A stretch of 64,000 nt of DNA from an uncultured archaeon (lineage in GTDB: Archaea; Asgardarchaeota; Lokiarchaeia; Sigyniarchaeales; SOKP01), in assembly GCA_964486045.1 (NCBI GenBank), contig CAZALK010000006.1, positions 64,001 to 128,000 on the forward strand. Direction: 5' to 3'. Positions 26,714 through 34,768 of the stretch are shown here, one piece after another; position 1 is the first letter of the stretch; each line of letters starts with the position of its first letter. The position numbers and the translations under genes are program-made. The notes below the pieces were generated by a model. It ran no database searches. It saw nothing but the letters and a program-made list of their open reading frames with translations, and was not told the origin of the DNA.

Positions 26714-27805
26714 ATGCGCTTAATAGAACAGAAAAGAAAAAACAGTATATATCTTTATTTTTTAGCTAAAGGGCAAAGAAAATATTTAGGAAAACCTGAT
26801 AAGATAAATCAAGAAAAAGCAAATGAAGCATTAAATCTTCTTGATACTCAAATTACGGAGTATAAATCTTTTCGAGACAAAATTGAAAAATATCTCTATG
26901 GAAAACGTGAAATTGAAATCAAAGATTCTGAATATAAAATGATCTTTTTTGACATGGATGGAGTTTTGTTTGAGAAACCATGGCAAGAAAGTAAAAGTAA
27001 AAAGGTTGCTATTAGTACATGGGATCTCCTCTTCAGAAAATTAGGACAAGACGATATATTTGAGGCGCTTAAGAAAAATTTTGAAAATGGTCTTTATGGT
27101 GACGATGTTGACAGCTATATAAAATGGAAAGAAGCTACGTGTAAAACCTTGAAAATCATACCGTTGGATGAGAAAACTTTCCAAGATGTGATTGACAGTC
27201 GAATTTTATCTCGAGGTGCCAAAGAATTATTTCAAATATTGAAAAAAAGTAAGATTAAAACAGCTATAATTACAGGTAGTTTCTATAGGCTTGCACAAAG
27301 GGCAAAAAAAGAATTAAATGATGTCAATCATGTCAGGGCTCATTGTCGATTGTTTTTTGATGACAATAGTTTATTAGAAAGATGGGAGCTAAATAAAACT
27401 GATTATAAACATAAGATAGAAATTATGGAAGAACTTGCTTTGAAAGAGGGAATTATTGATAAAAATGGGCATCCTGACCTTAATCAATGTGTATATGTTG
27501 GGGATGATGTTAACGATCTAGAAGCTTTTGGAGCAGTTGGGCTGGCAATTGCGTTTAATTCACATAAAAATATCGTTAAGAAGGCCGCTGATATTATAAT
27601 AATAGGTGGAGACTTAACTGAGATTCTTTCTCCTCTTTTCGATTTTGAAATGGATAAGGAAAAAATATCATTTTATGTATCAAAAGATGTAAAAGATGAA
27701 TGGCTAAATTTTGCTAAAACCAAAGATTATTCTACGTTACCTGATTTTATTATGAAAAGTATTGAATTCTACATTAAAGAAGAAAGAGCTTCCTCAAAGA
27801 CATAG
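26714..27805 (+). CDS. HAD phosphatase (SerB-like) with extra N-terminal domain and C-terminal ribbon-helix-helix-like domain
   Basis: FFDMDGVL, ITGS, YVGDDVND; C-terminal KISFYVSKDVKDEW..TLPDFI..SIEFY. Confidence 0.8.
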   Translation: MRLIEQKRKNSIYLYFLAKGQRKYLGKPDKINQEKANEALNLLDTQITEYKSFRDKIEKYLYGKREIEIKDSEYKMIFFDMDGVLFEKPWQESKSKKVAISTWDLLFRKLGQDDIFEALKKNFENGLYGDDVDSYIKWKEATCKTLKIIPLDEKTFQDVIDSRILSRGAKELFQILKKSKIKTAIITGSFYRLAQRAKKELNDVNHVRAHCRLFFDDNSLLERWELNKTDYKHKIEIMEELALKEGIIDKNGHPDLNQCVYVGDDVNDLEAFGAVGLAIAFNSHKNIVKKAADIIIIGGDLTEILSPLFDFEMDKEKISFYVSKDVKDEWLNFAKTKDYSTLPDFIMKSIEFYIKEERASSKT

Positions 27806-28338
27806 AATAAGATCCCTCTCTTTGAGGAGGAGTAGCTTTATCCATGGAAAAAGCAGAAATCTTCATTAACCTCCTCCCCTAGTCTCTTATCTCTGGGGAA
27901 ATTAGCCAACATTTTGTTTATCCACAAGAGGAACATTGGGAAATGATGCTAAATTTATTTATTGTAATGAAGCATTCAATGAATTATTGAAAAATTAAAT
28001 TAGTTATTGTTTTATTGAAAAGTCATAAATAAATTCTTCAAATCTATTATCATTAAAAAATATAACAAACAGAAATTTCTAATTCTTAATTTAGGTTTAT
28101 GCTAATTTTCTATAAATTTTTCATAATTAAATGACAATGCTTTAATCTAGAGGATATTTCAATAAACCCTAAAATTCTATGGGAATGAAAGAGGGGTAAA
28201 AAAGATATGTATGCTATTCTGCATATAATAACCAATCAAATTCTTTTTTGACGTTGAAAATATAATTTTCAAAAAATTATGATATTAAGATATAATAATG
28301 TTTAAATAATTATGTTTTTATATTTAATTCAAGCAAAA

Positions 28339-28671
28339 ATGAATGTATCCGAAGATTTGATCAATTTTTTCAAAACACTGGGAGAATCTACTAGATTAAA
28401 TATTATAAATTTTATTGGGGAGGGAGAAAAATCAGCCCAAGAGATCCAGAGTGGCTTGAATAAAAGCCAGTCTATAATCTCTCAGAGATTAAAGAATCTT
28501 ACTGATTCTGATATTATAACTGTCCGGAGAGAAAGACATCAAAAATATTACAAAATCAAATATCCAAATGTATTAGAAATCATCTCTGGAGCAGAAAATT
28601 TAATCTCACAAAAAAAGAAAGCAGAAATGGATAGATTAACTAGTGATGATATCTTGGACACATTATTTTAA
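28339..28671 (+). CDS. ArsR/SmtB-family transcriptional regulator
   Basis: FKTLGESTRLNII, SQSIISQRLKNL, KYYKI winged-HTH pattern. Confidence 0.9.
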   Translation: MNVSEDLINFFKTLGESTRLNIINFIGEGEKSAQEIQSGLNKSQSIISQRLKNLTDSDIITVRRERHQKYYKIKYPNVLEIISGAENLISQKKKAEMDRLTSDDILDTLF

Positions 28672-28700
28672 GAAAATCAAGCACTTAAATTTGATGGAAA

Positions 28701-29222
28701 TTGTCAGAAGGAAAGCAAAAGATAAAAATCTTAATTTTAGGATTGAAAAGTAGTGGAAAAACATCAATAGTTATTAGTTTACAAAAAAAAATCAATTTAT
28801 TAAATTTCATTAATTTGAAGCCCACACGAGGAATCAATAAAATCGAATTCGAAGAAGGTAATTCTAAATTTTATATTTGGGATTTTGGTGGTCAAGAAAG
28901 TTACCGGAAAGAATATATTGAACGAATGGATCGTTATTTCAACGAAACTAAGAAATTTATTTATGTTATAGATATACAGGAACAAGAACTTTACGACAGC
29001 TCATTAGGATTTCTTGAAGATATCATCTTAATCCTCAAGAATAAAGAACTCGTTACGAATATTTCAATCTTTTTACATAAATTTGATCCAGACTTAGAGA
29101 TAGAAGAGGAGATTCCAATAAACCTGGTGAAAAAAATAGAAGCTTTAATCCCGAAAGAATTTAAATATAAAATCTTTAAAACAAGCATTTACACAGTTTT
29201 TCGAAAAATGCCTTTTTCTTAA
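28701..29222 (+). CDS. Rag/Gtr-like small GTPase, G domain only
   Basis: G1 GLKSSGKTS, G3 IWDFGGQ, IYVIDIQ, G4 FLHKFD, G5 KTSIY. HKxD and TSIY are Rag-type rather than NKxD/SA. Confidence 0.88.
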   Translation: MSEGKQKIKILILGLKSSGKTSIVISLQKKINLLNFINLKPTRGINKIEFEEGNSKFYIWDFGGQESYRKEYIERMDRYFNETKKFIYVIDIQEQELYDSSLGFLEDIILILKNKELVTNISIFLHKFDPDLEIEEEIPINLVKKIEALIPKEFKYKIFKTSIYTVFRKMPFS

Positions 29223-29429
29223 AATAATAAATCTCTCCCAATTCCCTTTCTTAAAGATTAAAAAGCTTGTTTGTATAATTTTTGTCTACTTTTTATATAC
29301 AATTTGTGATTTACAAAACTTTAAAATTTCATAGGTTACTATGAATCTGAATTTTATATAGTGAACTGATTGTTTACTGTACTGGTGTTTAAGAAAAATT
29401 TTTAAATTGAAACAGCAAGGGATGAGGAT

Positions 29430-32400
29430 TTGAAATATTTAATTCTTTCTTATTTTGATGACTGGGAAGGCCCAAAAATATTTTTGCAACACCCAAAAAC
29501 AAAATCTCATGAAGAATTAGAACAGATTCCTCAATTAATGAATCTTTATGATAAAGGATTTTTTACTCATTCGATAAAAGGATTTACTAGCGCAAACTTA
29601 ATTTTTGATGTAGCGAGTAATTATATCAGAGGTGGATCTGAATTACTCCAAATAACAATTCTTTGTAAAGATGAATACTTGAATACAGATCTTTCAAAAA
29701 CACTTCTTGAATGGTTTGTGCATCAAGTAAATGAAATTTCTGAGGTATTTAAAGCGTTTTATCCTGAATTAGAGGAAAAACCAGCGAGTAACAATAAATA
29801 TGTTATTCCCCTTTCCACTGATTCTTCAACAGGAAAAAGGGGTAGTAGAGGTAAATTAGCACAAGTTCGAGATTTATTTTTTAATGTTTTCAATAATTTA
29901 CCTAAAGAAAGCATTACAATAAGGCGTTCAGACTCAAAAATTTTTATATTTGGATTATCTAAAGTAGGAAAATCAACGATTATAAAGGTTATTCAAGGTT
30001 ACCAAAATACAAGTACAATTCCCACTTTCAATGTGGATATTTCACAAATACTATTTAATAATATTTCTTTAATAACGTATGATGCTCCTGGGCAGACAAA
30101 ATTCCAAAATTTTTGGAAACCTTATCTAAAAAATTTGGATGGATTAGTTTTTATACTTGATATTACAGACTATTCTACTTTTCCTTAAGCTCGTGAAATT
30201 TTACACAGTATTGCTAATAAACCAAACCTTAGAAACATACCTTTATTGATACTTTATAATAAGATCGATTTAATGACCCCTGACGTAGAGAAAATCAATG
30301 ATGCACTTAGTATTGATAAATTTGGGAAAAGAGTCTGTAGACATTTTTTAACTAGTGGTTTAACAAATGAAGGAATAGTAAACGCATTCACTTGGTTGAC
30401 TAATAATATTTTGAGTCGAAGAATTTTACCTGGAGAGGAAGAGTTAGGAATAATTTTTTCACGTTGGGATGAAATTATCGGTCTTAAAATTCTTACAACA
30501 TATCCGGAAAATGTTGTTGATGATCCTGAAAGTGTCGCTCTAAAGTGTTCTTCAATATCACAATTTGTTTATGAAGGGGAACAAGTAAAAAAATCTGCGT
30601 TTATCTTGCCCTTACCACAATTGAGGGCAAAGGCAGCAATTTATTATGATTATATTCAAGATAGTTCAATCCGAGGTAATCGGTTACCTCTCTCTATAAT
30701 CTTAATTTATCAAGAAAAGATTCCAAATTCAATTATAGATAAATTTAATAGTTTAGTACTAGATAAATTTGAGCTTATTAAAAAATGTTATATGAACGAA
30801 GAGAACTTCGATAAAAATTTTTATGAGCTCCATGGAACAATTCGGGAGAGATTAAAATCTTTTAAATCTACTGTAAAAGAATTGAGAGTAGCAGAATTAC
30901 AATATAAAGCTTTGTTTAAAGCCGCTCGAGATGCAATCTTAATTATTGAGCAGAAATCAGAAATAATTATTGATGCAAATGAGCAAGCTGAGAACTTCTT
31001 TTTATTACCTTTGGAAAAAATCATTGGTTCTCACATGACTAACCTAAAATTTGATATTGAGTATGAATTGTTTAGAGAAAAAATGGCAAATCAAGTTAGT
31101 GTAGAAGGTACTCCCCCATTTGGAGCCATAATTTTGAATTCTGAGGAATCTTTCATTCCTGTGGAAATAAATGCAAGTAGAATTCAAATGGGGGGTAGAA
31201 ATTACATACAATTTATAATTCGAGATGTTACTGAGCGTAGTAAAGCCGAACAAAGATTAAGAGAATCTGAGGAAAATTATCGACTCATTTCAGAAAATGC
31301 GAATGATCTAATTATCGTTATTAATAATAAATTTGAAGGGGAGTACATAAATGAAGATGCATATCAGAATATAATGGGATATTCAAAGAAAGATGTTATA
31401 GGCAAGTCTGTTTTAGAATTTATTCATCCAGAAGATCTTCAGAAATGCACTCAAGCAATAATGAAGGGTTTCAAAAAGGGTGGAGGACGTGTTGATGCCA
31501 GATTTAGACATAATGATGGTCATTATGTATGGTTAGATATAAAAGGAAGACCTTATTACCCTAAGGAAGGTTTAGGAAAAGCGCTTTTAATTGCTCGAGA
31601 TATTTCTGAGCGAAAAAAGGCCGAATCTACTATTAAAAAGAATTTAAAGTTTGAAAAAACTGTTGGGGTCATTTCCTCTCGGTTTATTGATGCAAACGAT
31701 TTTGATAAAGCAATTAATGATACTTTACGAGATATTGGGATACTTTGTGATGCGAATCGAGCTTTTCTTTTTAGTTATAATAAAAATGATAAAACTATTG
31801 ACAACACTCATATGTGGATTGAAGAGGGAATAAAAGCCAAAATTCAGGATTTACAAAAAATCCCTAAAATGATACTTCTCTACTGGGAGCAATTAATAAT
31901 TGAAAATGGGTATGTGCATATTACGGATGTTTCAAATCTCAAATCAAGAAATTATTTTCTTAAAGAACACTTTGAAAGCCTAAAGATTACATCTTTTTTA
32001 ATTCTTCCTGTTTATGTCAGAGATAGACTCGATATAATGATGGGTTTTGACAATTTCTCAAAACCAAAAGATTTAAAAACTGATGATATTACATTATTGC
32101 GTGTAACATCAAATATCATTGGTAGTGCTATGGAACGAAGACTTTCTGAGGATATAATAAAAGAATCTGAGGAAAAATATCGATTAATAACTGAAAATGC
32201 AAATGATATGATTGGTATATTGAACGATAGGTTTGAGTGGGAATACATTAATGAAGAAACGTTTCTAAAAGTTTTAGGATACTCAAATGAAGATCTGATT
32301 GGAAAGTCATCACTACTTTTTGTTCATCCAGAAGACATACGAAGAACAGCGAGAAAGTTAAGAATAGGTTTTAAAACAGGAATAGGGAGTGATGAGCTAA

Positions 32401-34373
32401 GATTTCGAGGGAGAAATGGAGATTACGTATGGTTAGAGACAAAAGGAAGCACATTTACTAATAGAAACGGAGAGTTAAAAGCTCTTCTCATTTCAAGGGA
32501 TATTTCTGAACGTAAAAAGGCAGAGGAACGGATACGAAATTCAGAACGCAAATATCGCCATTTATACGAAAACTCTCCTAATGCAATTGTCATTAGTAAT
32601 AAGGATGGAATCATCTTGGAAAGCAATTCGATAACAACAGAGATTTTTGGATATGGAAAATCGGAATTTATAGGTAAAAATTATGCTGATTTAAGAATAT
32701 TTACCAAAGAGCAAATAATTTTACTTCAAACTAGATTTGAAGATATGATGAAGGGAAAGAAGGTACCACCCCAAGAATTTCAAATACAAAAAGAAAATGG
32801 AAAGTCAGCTTGGGTCTATTATCAAAGCTCACTTATAAAATTGCATGACGATTTTATGGTCGAAGCCTTAATTCAAGATATTTCCCAACAAAAAATAGCT
32901 GAAAAGTTATTAAGAGAATCAGAAGAAAAATATCGAGTAATCTCTGAAACGGCATATGACTTGATTGGCATCTTAAATAGCAAATTTAAGTATGAATATA
33001 TTAACGAACAAGCTTTCAAACAAATTCTCGGTTATTTTAGCAAAGATCTTATTGGAAAGTCAGCTCTGAAATTTACTCATCCCGACGACATGATAGAAAC
33101 AGCTCAAGCATTAAGGGATGGATTTAAAGAGGGAAGTGGGGGTAAAGAACTAAGATTTAAACATGCTGATGGACACTGGGTTTGGATTGAAGCAAAAGGT
33201 AAGACATATCATGACATCAATGGAGATTTAAAAGCAATTGTTATTTCAAGAGATATATCCGAAAGGAAAAAAGCTGAGCAAAAATTGCAAGCCACTGAAA
33301 GGAATCTTAGAGAAAGAGTTAAAGAACTCAGTGTTTTATTTGGGATTTCTCAAATCTTAGAAAAAGGAAATATTTCAATAGAAGAAATACTATTTGGAGT
33401 TCTTCACTTAATTCCTTCAGCTTGGCAATATCCAGAGGTGACTTGTGCAAGAATCGCATTAGATAATAAATCATATAAAACAGAAAATTTTAGAGAAACT
33501 GAATGGAAATTAATTACTCAAGTTGATATTAATGAGAAACCAATGAAAATTGAAGTTTTCTACCTTGAAGATAATCCATTTCTTGAAGAAGAAAAAGCGC
33601 TAATAAGAGAGATTGGTAATCGTTTAAAAATAACTATTGAAAAAATAGATACAGAGCAAAATTTAAGAGCGTCTGAGATAAAATATAGGAAATTGGTTAA
33701 CAGCATTTCAGATCTTTTGTTAGAGGTAGATTTAAAAGGAAAAATCACCTACGCTAGTCCTCAAATTTATGATATGTTTGGATTTACTCCTTCTGAAATT
33801 CAAAATACACGAATCCATAAGTTTATTCATCCCGATGATATGCAATACGTAATGGAAACAATGAAAAAGGGATTTGAAACGAAAAAAGAAACAACACTCG
33901 AATATCGAACTCGACATAAAGACGGTCACTATATTCATGCTTCAGTAAAAGGAATAGTATTGAGTAATGGAAGATTCTATGGTGTTGTTCGAGATATAAC
34001 TAGCATAAAAATAGCCGAACATAAGTTTAGAAGCCTGCTTGACACTTCTCCAGTTGGAATTATAGAGCTTAATTTGATAACAATGAAAATAGATTATATT
34101 AATCCGAAATTAAGGGAAGCTATTGGCTTAGATTTAGTTGAATTAAATCGAAAACACGTCTACGTAGATAATTTTGACTTATCTAACAATACAGCCATAG
34201 AATTTAAGATTTATAACAAGGGTGGATTAATTTGGTTAACTGGAAAAAAGATACTGCAACATAACAAACCAGATGAGCTAAAAAGTGCGATAATATGGAT
34301 AACTGAGATTTCTGACAATAAGAAATTAGAATCGACATACGTAGCAGCTGCTAGCAGTATACGGTTGAGATGA
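29430..34373 (+). CDS. Longin/uDENN-like - Arf-like GTPase - longin/uDENN-like - multi-PAS/GAF fusion, interrupted by one in-frame TAA at 30186-30188
   Basis: ORFs 29430-30188 and 30246-34373 are in the same frame; the gap reads AREILHSIANKPNLRNIPL. G1 GLSKVGKST, G2 PT and G3 DAPGQ lie before the stop, G4 NKID and G5 TSG after. Seven PAS repeats and two GAF-like segments follow; no HisKA/HATPase. Confidence 0.85.
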
Positions 34374-34435: not shown

Positions 34436-34768
34436 TTAAATTACAGCTACTAAATCTTGTGATTTTACTTGCTTATTTACATATTTGTGAAATTGAAGTA
34501 CATTAAATTCGTATGGGTGTGTTTTTTTTAAGGTTTTAAAAAAATCACATTTTACACAATCTTTAGCTTTGTCAATAAATGATCCATTCACAGTACCAGT
34601 ACAAATAGTACCAGTAATATATGCACAAGCTCTACCTCCATTGTTTCCTTCGCAAAAACCATCTGCAGAAACATATGTTGCAGCGGGACATACACCCAAA
34701 GATTTAACATTCACTCCACCAACTTCTCTTCCACATTTTTTAAATTCCCAACAATTTAATTTATCCAT
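34436..34768 (-). CDS. Small Cys-rich 'two-CW'-type protein
   Basis: NCWEFKKCGRE..CPAA..GGRAC..GTIC..CVKCDFF; GGAAGGT upstream. Confidence 0.8.
   Translation of the reverse strand: MDKLNCWEFKKCGREVGGVNVKSLGVCPAATYVSADGFCEGNNGGRACAYITGTICTGTVNGSFIDKAKDCVKCDFFKTLKKTHPYEFNVLQFHKYVNKQVKSQDLVAVI

Follow-up and report, generated by a model that had tools for sequence, protein, structure and literature searches.

A short Rag-family GTPase of Lokiarchaeia that ends soon after its G5 motif is conserved beside a cysteine-free ArsR-type regulator, its candidate partner

The stretch of DNA considered here, hereafter the window, comprises 64,000 nucleotides of contig CAZALK010000006.1 (positions 64,001 to 128,000, assembly GCA_964486045.1) from an uncultured archaeon of the Lokiarchaeia. 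It carries a gene for an ArsR/SmtB-family regulator, a gene for a short Rag-family GTPase and a gene for a giant protein with longin-like, Arf-type and PAS domains (Table 1). A preliminary description of the same DNA had placed the GTPase 29 nt after the ArsR stop codon on the same (+) strand and had quoted five of its motifs (LGLKSSGKTSI, IWDFGGQ, IYVIDIQ, FLHKFD and KTSIY), and all of this was confirmed. A HAD hydrolase gene, which in G059 is also found upstream of the ArsR-Rag pair with an inserted gene between, precedes the locus, and a small Cys-rich gene lies beyond the giant. In L132, L136 and L137 a 118-aa gene takes the position equivalent to the latter and is matched to it by position alone. 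Contigs C40 and C45 of assembly G000 have a GC content of 58-59%, against about 31% elsewhere in that assembly, and are probably contamination.

Table 1. Genes and sequence elements of the ArsR-Rag locus and its surroundings, in window coordinates
Feature	Position	Strand	Details
HAD hydrolase	26714..27805	+	extra N- and C-terminal segments
Imperfect 10-4-10 inverted repeat	28276..28299	.	abuts TATA box; candidate ArsR operator (autoregulation)
Archaeal TATA-like box, ArsR-Rag transcript	28301..28308	+	read from sequence; retained in most close orthologues; putative function
ArsR/SmtB-family winged-helix regulator	28339..28671	+	110 aa, cysteine-free; Pfam HTH_5, NCBIfam NF033788
Acidic C-terminal tail D-[IV]-x-D-T-L of ArsR	28648..28668	+	candidate Rag-docking element
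Short Asgard RagGtr GTPase	28701..29222	+	173 aa, TTG start; G1-G5 intact, catalytic Gln65 invariant; without helix alpha5, roadblock domain or lipid-anchor signal
C-terminal segment after G5	29193..29219	+	invariant Phe167 and Lys169; predicted extra beta-strand replacing alpha5
TATA-like box before giant gene	29320..29327	+	in 207-nt gap; invariant columns in five orthologous intergenic regions; putative function
Longin-like/Arf-type GTPase/longin-like/multi-PAS + GAF giant	29430..34373	+	no kinase output domain; TAA at 30186-30188 in this assembly
Small Cys-rich protein	34436..34768	-	no Pfam match; convergent on giant

The ArsR reading frame was called at 28312-28671 on the + strand. Its true start is probably the ATG at 28339, because the closest orthologues are 110-111 aa long and because the conserved TATA box would set the start of the transcript downstream of 28312. 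The protein matches Pfam HTH_5 (PF01022, E=3.4e-8) and clears the ArsR/SmtB family cut-off of NF033788 (59.3 bits versus 55), so that it has the winged-helix core, and a dN/dS of 0.10-0.15 against three orthologues indicates purifying selection. When solved ArsRs are aligned to a profile of this family they reach only about position 85-103 of 111, and the C-terminal extension is left unmatched. Cysteine is absent from 95 of 105 family members and there is no invariant His or Cys column; the conserved Cys/His ligand sites of metal- and thiol-sensing ArsRs are thus lacking in the Rag-linked family, and another input is therefore needed. The Rag-linked ArsRs have in common with HlyU, SmtB, CzrA and BigR the winged-helix core and an inverted repeat beside their own promoter; unlike these, they mostly have no cysteine, they carry a C-terminal extension of 15-20 residues with a conserved acidic tail, and they are linked or fused to a Ras-superfamily GTPase.

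The GTPase is an Asgard RagGtr protein by profile, fold, motifs and phylogenetic placement. Pfam alone gives a near-tie between Gtr1_RagA (E=3e-20) and Arf (E=1.9e-19). A profile of 54 relatives puts PDB entries 8YL2 (E=3.9e-41) and 8ZLA at the top, then RagC/D through G5 (E=1.5e-19), and its match to Arf6 (E=1e-18) reaches position 148 only. The nearest fold to the model of the GTPase is LokiRagO (PDB 8YL2; Z 21.9, rmsd 2.1, 163 aligned), which is thus its best match in both sequence and structure, and the next are Gtr1/RagA (Z 20.7), Arf/Arl (Z at most 18.4) and RagD (Z 17.7). His126, Lys127, Asp129, Thr161 and Gln65 are invariant in 54 sequences, which gives the H-K-x-D form of G4, the T-S-I-aromatic form of G5 and the switch-II glutamine. 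In a tree (all trees reported are quick trees, this one without eukaryotic rows) the short proteins, 67 after dereplication, group as a single clade (SH-aLRT 98) that sits within the long Asgard Rags and apart from Ras-like and Arf-like proteins, and close short homologues from Helarchaeales are labelled RagGtr by tree in the supplementary table of Vargova et al. (10.1101/2024.02.28.582541). An Arf, ArfR or ArfL identity was rejected, since G4 is H-K-x-D and not N-K-x-D, the model has no N-terminal helix and the protein groups with Rags. Assignment to the Rag family is therefore as the preliminary description had it, and the narrower label of RagC/D-like found no support: the profile leans slightly towards RagC/D, but the model is nearer to RagA/Gtr1 than to RagD, and the TSIY-type G5 is common to Asgard Rags generally, long ones included.

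Homologues of the GTPase were found in Promethearchaeota/Lokiarchaeia and Helarchaeales. A match to the short Rag at E<=1e-30 is present in 112 of 151 genomes of the class, most of the matches listed being in short frames of about 165-235 aa, and a search of 160 genomes from other Asgard classes (E<=1e-45, 17 candidates scored in each) did not recover the short clade. A closed 4.4-Mb genome of family f2 has long Rags only. Loci titled Thor-, Hod- or Hermodarchaeota have the same operon as the Loki loci, and these labels were not counted as a wider range. As judged from these searches, the short Rags are a Lokiarchaeia-specific Rag clade. The GTPase of the window is under purifying selection (dN/dS 0.12-0.15 versus three orthologues). 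A sister group of the short Rags (L004, L098, L102, L104 and L108:6951-8168) is extended at the N terminus and carries helices at the C terminus in place of the typical roadblock, with a short linker between G5 and the helix; these proteins may be an intermediate in the loss of alpha5.

The absence of the roadblock domain, through which canonical Rags heterodimerise, was borne out, and helix alpha5 of the G domain, which follows G5 in canonical small GTPases, is missing too. The early stop had been put at about 10 residues past G5; measured from the start of G5 it comes after 13 residues, and it is conserved in 262 sequences, 205 of about 260 homologues ending at 12-13 residues from G5. In the host genome each of the three short Rags has 13 residues here, versus at least 22 in the other GTPases with an identifiable G5. 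No alpha5 helix is seen in two AlphaFold models, which are predictions only. In the model of an ArsR-Rag fusion from L108 (overall pLDDT 91.7) a strand, E265-273, follows beta6 with a local pLDDT of about 87, and in the own model of the window GTPase the tail is poorly resolved, with a beta-bridge only and a pLDDT of 62. A beta-strand in place of alpha5 is thus predicted. Within the short C-terminal segment Phe167 is kept in 99% and Lys169 in 93% of the 262 sequences. Positions 85 and 122, which by analogy with Ras would face alpha5, are hydrophobic in long Rags and Lys85/Ser122 in short Rags, and every row linked to an ArsR (100%) has Lys85. Following alpha1, the short-Rag clade has in addition a short hydrophobic helix of its own. 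Covariation within the protein (effective depth 142, underpowered and suggestive) couples the C-terminal strand weakly to beta5, beta6 and this clade-specific helix. Because the truncation is family-wide, the alpha5-facing positions are polar and the helix after alpha1 is particular to the clade, the remodelling of the fold is, on the sequences compared, old and selected. An assembly artefact or a pseudogene was rejected as the source of the truncation, given that 262 homologues stop at the same place and given the low dN/dS.

The ArsR-Rag pair, an apparent operon, is conserved across Lokiarchaeia and is spread over families f1-f7. Among 159 distinct short-Rag loci an ArsR gene is directly upstream in 107, the two are fused in 2, a stand-alone longin gene is the neighbour in 21, neither is present in 20 and 9 are at contig edges; the figure of 107 overstates the linkage, as the queries used to gather the loci were themselves linked to an ArsR and related loci do not count independently. 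Fusions of ArsR to Rag form at least 16 clusters, recovered by a genome search and a fusion query; a search with the ArsR profile for longer homologues had missed them. The quick tree needs three origins of fusion, and its starred branches force two. Three of the fusions (P0135, P0218 and P0239) are tandem ArsR-ArsR-Rag proteins, which, read as single-chain dimers, hint at one Rag per ArsR dimer (2:1). A free tandem ArsR-ArsR protein is encoded beside a Rag at L112:3724-4377. In family f4 an ArsR-Rag fusion (L108:3942-8788, L306) lies within a cluster of at least four Rag-family genes, near a GAF/HisKA kinase.

The acidic tail is a mark of Rag-linked ArsRs. In 120 ArsR-Rag pairs D104 is conserved in 105, D107 in 101, T108 in 96 and L109 in 117, and the motif D-[IV]-x-D-T-L ends only two of the 5074 ORFs of the host genome, both of them ArsRs beside a short Rag. 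At 40 follow-up loci an acidic-hydrophobic tail was present in 20/20 ArsRs near a Rag, and it was missing or truncated in 11 ArsR paralogues without an adjacent Rag; tailed ArsRs without an adjacent Rag are few (L119, L256, L258 and L259). Genomes without a short-Rag match mostly have no tailed ArsR either, and in the fusions examined the tail is gone in all but P0239. Covariation between the two proteins gave noise only (120 pairs, effective depth 71). Gene order, fusion and tail all mark the ArsR, and not the longin giant, as the partner conserved with the short Rag. The preliminary description had seen the ArsR as a transcriptional controller of the operon; because the fusions and the tail point that way, the ArsR would also be the physical partner of the Rag instead of a controller only.

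The inverted repeat beside the TATA box is kept in orthologous loci while its flanks diverge. A palindrome with a spacer of 4 (at most 3 mismatches) is found upstream of ArsR in 30 of 59 dereplicated loci, against a mean of 8.5 and a maximum of 15 in shuffled sequences, and other spacers are found in 5-18 of the 59; it is also present at loci without an Lrp gene. In the host genome 10 of 11 near-matches to the palindrome fall between genes, and a single duplicated region accounts for six of them. We infer from this pattern that the repeat is a candidate ArsR operator. Three operator-like palindromes also occur upstream of a gene for a 5217-aa protein in G000 (C4:298351-298482 and C6:783-914), in a region that is present twice, at the end of C4 and in reverse complement at the start of C6, which is either a repeat or a contig overlap. 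At L003 and some 70 loci related to it, which have the canonical operon, a second palindrome, TTAAT-N5-ATTAA, is conserved upstream of ArsR and before the TATA box; it has the 5-5-5 geometry characteristic of Lrp/AsnC sites, and the adjoining gene is a divergent Lrp gene. A sigma-70 promoter scan is uninformative for archaeal DNA.

The giant, when read through, consists of a longin-like domain, an Arf-type GTPase domain (Arf E=2.4e-33 versus Gtr1_RagA E=1.2e-7), a second longin-like domain, and 7-8 PAS domains plus GAF, with no kinase domain. An in-frame TAA interrupts it inside its own G (Arf) domain; two further assemblies of this species (L129 and L130) read CAA at the codon, as do all orthologues, and intact orthologues measure 1772-1897 aa. 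Read-through of the TAA was considered and set aside as unnecessary in view of the CAA in the other assemblies. Over its first 500 codons dN/dS is about 0.3, a weaker constraint than on ArsR or Rag, and the TATA-like box in the gap before it suggests that the gene has a separate promoter. The giant family is present in 62 of 151 Lokiarchaeia genomes, some of them without a short-Rag match, and with the query used it was not found in many genomes that have the ArsR-Rag pair. Liu et al. (10.1101/2020.10.19.343400) described NPRL2-like longin proteins fused to two-component domains in Asgard archaea, and the giant is of the same general kind; unlike those fusions it holds its own Arf-type domain, has no terminal kinase domain in the window clade and is not a conserved partner of the short Rag.

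We lean, on balance, towards the view that the short Rag is a soluble GTP switch which binds ArsR and modulates how ArsR binds DNA, with an exchangeable sensor alongside. Its clade, specific to Lokiarchaeia in the searches made, has lost the roadblock as well as alpha5. The switch would cycle between GTP and GDP, and its dedicated partner would be the upstream ArsR, with which it would be co-transcribed from the TATA box at 28301. The Rag would bind the ArsR dimer, probably as one Rag per dimer because ArsR-ArsR-Rag fusions exist, and the acidic tail may serve as a tether, possibly against Lys85 and Lys169 of the remodelled alpha5 face. The nucleotide state would then alter the grip of ArsR on the inverted repeat beside the TATA box, the Rag taking the place of the metal or thiol input that is missing from the Cys-free ArsR. 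The adjacent sensor, which is most often a MASE3-PAS histidine kinase accompanied by a response regulator and here the longin/Arf/PAS giant, would be the regulated output or would feed the switch. Complex prediction with two ArsR chains, one Rag, GTP and Mg scored 0.60, versus 0.01 for the best control, with at least 96% contact agreement between runs and a partner pLDDT of at least 85. Among solved complexes 58 of 80 attained the mark, as did 2 of 110 mismatched pairs, and scores reaching it at 0.60 or lower came from only 7 of the 80 solved complexes but from both mismatches; the predicted complex thus weakly supports ArsR-Rag binding and adds a little to an already fair prior from synteny and fusion. 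Several observations run counter to this reading. The complex prediction returned no interface, roughly one short Rag in four adjoins a longin gene or has no partner gene at all, Lys85 is retained in fusions that have no tail, the pTM of 0.69 of the fusion model does not fix the domain orientation, and adjacency alone can yield a fusion of neighbouring genes.

The preliminary description favoured a different partner: the Rag as partner or substrate of the longin-GTPase-PAS protein, with ArsR-Rag-longin/PAS synteny expected across Lokiarchaeia. On such a view the ArsR would only control the operon, and the longin domains, of the giant or standing alone, would act on the short Rag as a GAP like FLCN or GATOR1 or would replace the roadblock in trans. 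Genes of the longin-Arf type do turn up repeatedly near short Rags, in three arrangements. The ArsR-Rag-giant order is retained in the clade of 84-97% identity, the next relative has a giant upstream, and L309 has a divergent 334-aa longin-Arf homologue and a stand-alone longin downstream. Moreover, 21 short Rags adjoin genes for stand-alone longins (about 145 aa), long Rags are neighbours of the giant at 6 of its 34 loci elsewhere, and both longin-like domains of the giant have an Arg-Gly loop, with a weak Folliculin Pfam match (E=0.097). Against this, the ArsR-Rag part of the order is what is conserved: the giant follows in 6 of 107 ArsR-Rag loci only, none of the 34 other giant loci has a short Rag or ArsR neighbour, and the phyletic patterns are uncoupled. 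The giant has a nearer substrate in its own Arf-type domain, it has its own TATA-like box, it is broken in the window and truncated after G2 in G059 while ArsR and Rag are intact in both, and the fusions and the tail would be left unexplained. We therefore consider a longin partnership unlikely, and the FLCN-like module that had been proposed is kept as a minority rival. An 850-990 aa subfamily of longin-Arf-longin-PAS-kinase proteins repeatedly adjoins a long roadblock-type Rag of 315-330 aa (L275, L277, L279, L282, L290 and L299) and is more promising as an FLCN-like Rag module than the window locus is. The second group of short Rags has as neighbours the stand-alone longins, which end in an extra amphipathic helix (L027, L041, L045, L046, L049, L124, L126, L141, L163, L168, L185 and L189; L046 is a tandem Rag-longin-Rag-longin array) and which may possibly supply a roadblock/longin to short Rags in trans.

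The extra helix of these longins has an alpha5-like spacing, and it, or the ArsR tail, could be thought to supply alpha5 in trans to form an obligate heterodimer that is not gated by nucleotide. The uniform end of the three short Rags of the host genome, when set against its other GTPases, would fit such a complementation of the fold, which is nevertheless very unlikely: the alpha5-facing positions are now polar, the confident fusion model puts a cis beta-strand in the alpha5 space, the weak covariation ties that strand to beta5 and beta6, and most fusions are tail-less and yet have gained no alpha5. Another possibility starts from the commonest locus, in which a divergent Lrp/AsnC gene is followed by ArsR, Rag, a MASE3-PAS histidine kinase and a response regulator, and of which the host genome has one copy of the canonical type on contig C5. 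Here the Rag would modulate the two-component system of the operon, ArsR would be merely an autorepressor, and the window copy would be a duplicate that lost its kinase. A kinase or PAS sensor comes after the ArsR-Rag pair in 72 of 107 loci, with a response regulator directly in 2, and one cluster (P0219, 565 aa) is a Rag-PAS-HATPase fusion; the proposal of Liu et al. (10.1101/2020.10.19.343400) that Asgard growth control is centred on two-component systems with eukaryote-like regulators also counts in its favour. The pair persists, however, without a kinase in the window clade, in Helarchaeales-type loci and in the fusions, it is under purifying selection at the window locus, and P0219 stands alone as an unverified cluster, set against the 16 or more clusters of ArsR fusions, which makes control of the kinase quite unlikely.

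A switch acting on ArsR would differ from the closest known systems. The short Rag has in common with eukaryotic RagA/B-RagC/D (Gtr1-Gtr2) the fold of the G domain, the H-K-x-D G4, the T-S-I G5 and the catalytic Gln; unlike these, it has no roadblock and hence no roadblock-mediated heterodimer or Ragulator anchor, it has no alpha5, it is not assignable to RagA/B or RagC/D, and its partner would be a prokaryotic winged-helix protein. A functional parallel would be offered by TFEB, a transcription factor to which eukaryotic Rags bind directly. The small prokaryotic GTPase MglA is encoded with a dedicated partner, MglB, as a pair of GTPase and roadblock genes; the short Rag is likewise encoded with a dedicated partner, but it belongs to a different GTPase clade, and where MglA has a roadblock protein its partner is a longin or a DNA-binding protein. 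Tran et al. (PMC10933270) describe Rag-like proteins fused to roadblock or longin and not, as a general rule, encoded in operons with regulators, unlike the short clade, which has no roadblock, longin or alpha5 and is tied to ArsR; they also state that the roles of Asgard Rags and Rabs are unknown and that the matching of partners from gene order is difficult. In the analysis of Vargova et al. (10.1101/2024.02.28.582541), both eukaryotic Rag paralogues fall inside the Asgard RagGtr clade. The alpha5-less, ArsR-tied clade is not discussed in the portions of the main text of these two papers that were consulted. No link between ArsR and an Asgard small GTPase was found in the literature searched, from which subscription papers were mostly outside scope, and the same literature held nothing relevant on a MASE3 kinase with a GTPase in Lokiarchaeia or on LokiRagO/8YL2. 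An Atlas shape search returned no ArsR-Rag cluster, which says nothing on novelty. A class-wide module of alpha5-less Rag and tailed ArsR is thus apparently undescribed.

Synteny and repeated fusion give a whole Rag clade a partner, together with a candidate DNA site, and the system is small, two soluble proteins and a 24-bp repeat, so that the question can be tested in vitro. In its fullest form the proposal is that in Lokiarchaeia a Rag of remodelled fold, with a beta-strand for alpha5 and no roadblock, directly switches a prokaryotic winged-helix transcription factor in a nucleotide-dependent manner beside two-component sensors, and this we put at slightly less than an even chance. Were it true, the prokaryotes most closely related to eukaryotes would have a Ras-superfamily switch that acts on transcription and not on membranes, a small-GTPase fold would be able to work without helix alpha5, and the module would combine signalling of eukaryotic and of bacterial type and would parallel, in a prokaryote, the binding of transcription factors by eukaryotic Rags. 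As a side branch within Lokiarchaeia, the short-Rag clade informs on the capacities of Rags before eukaryotes and not on a direct ancestor of the mTORC1 system.
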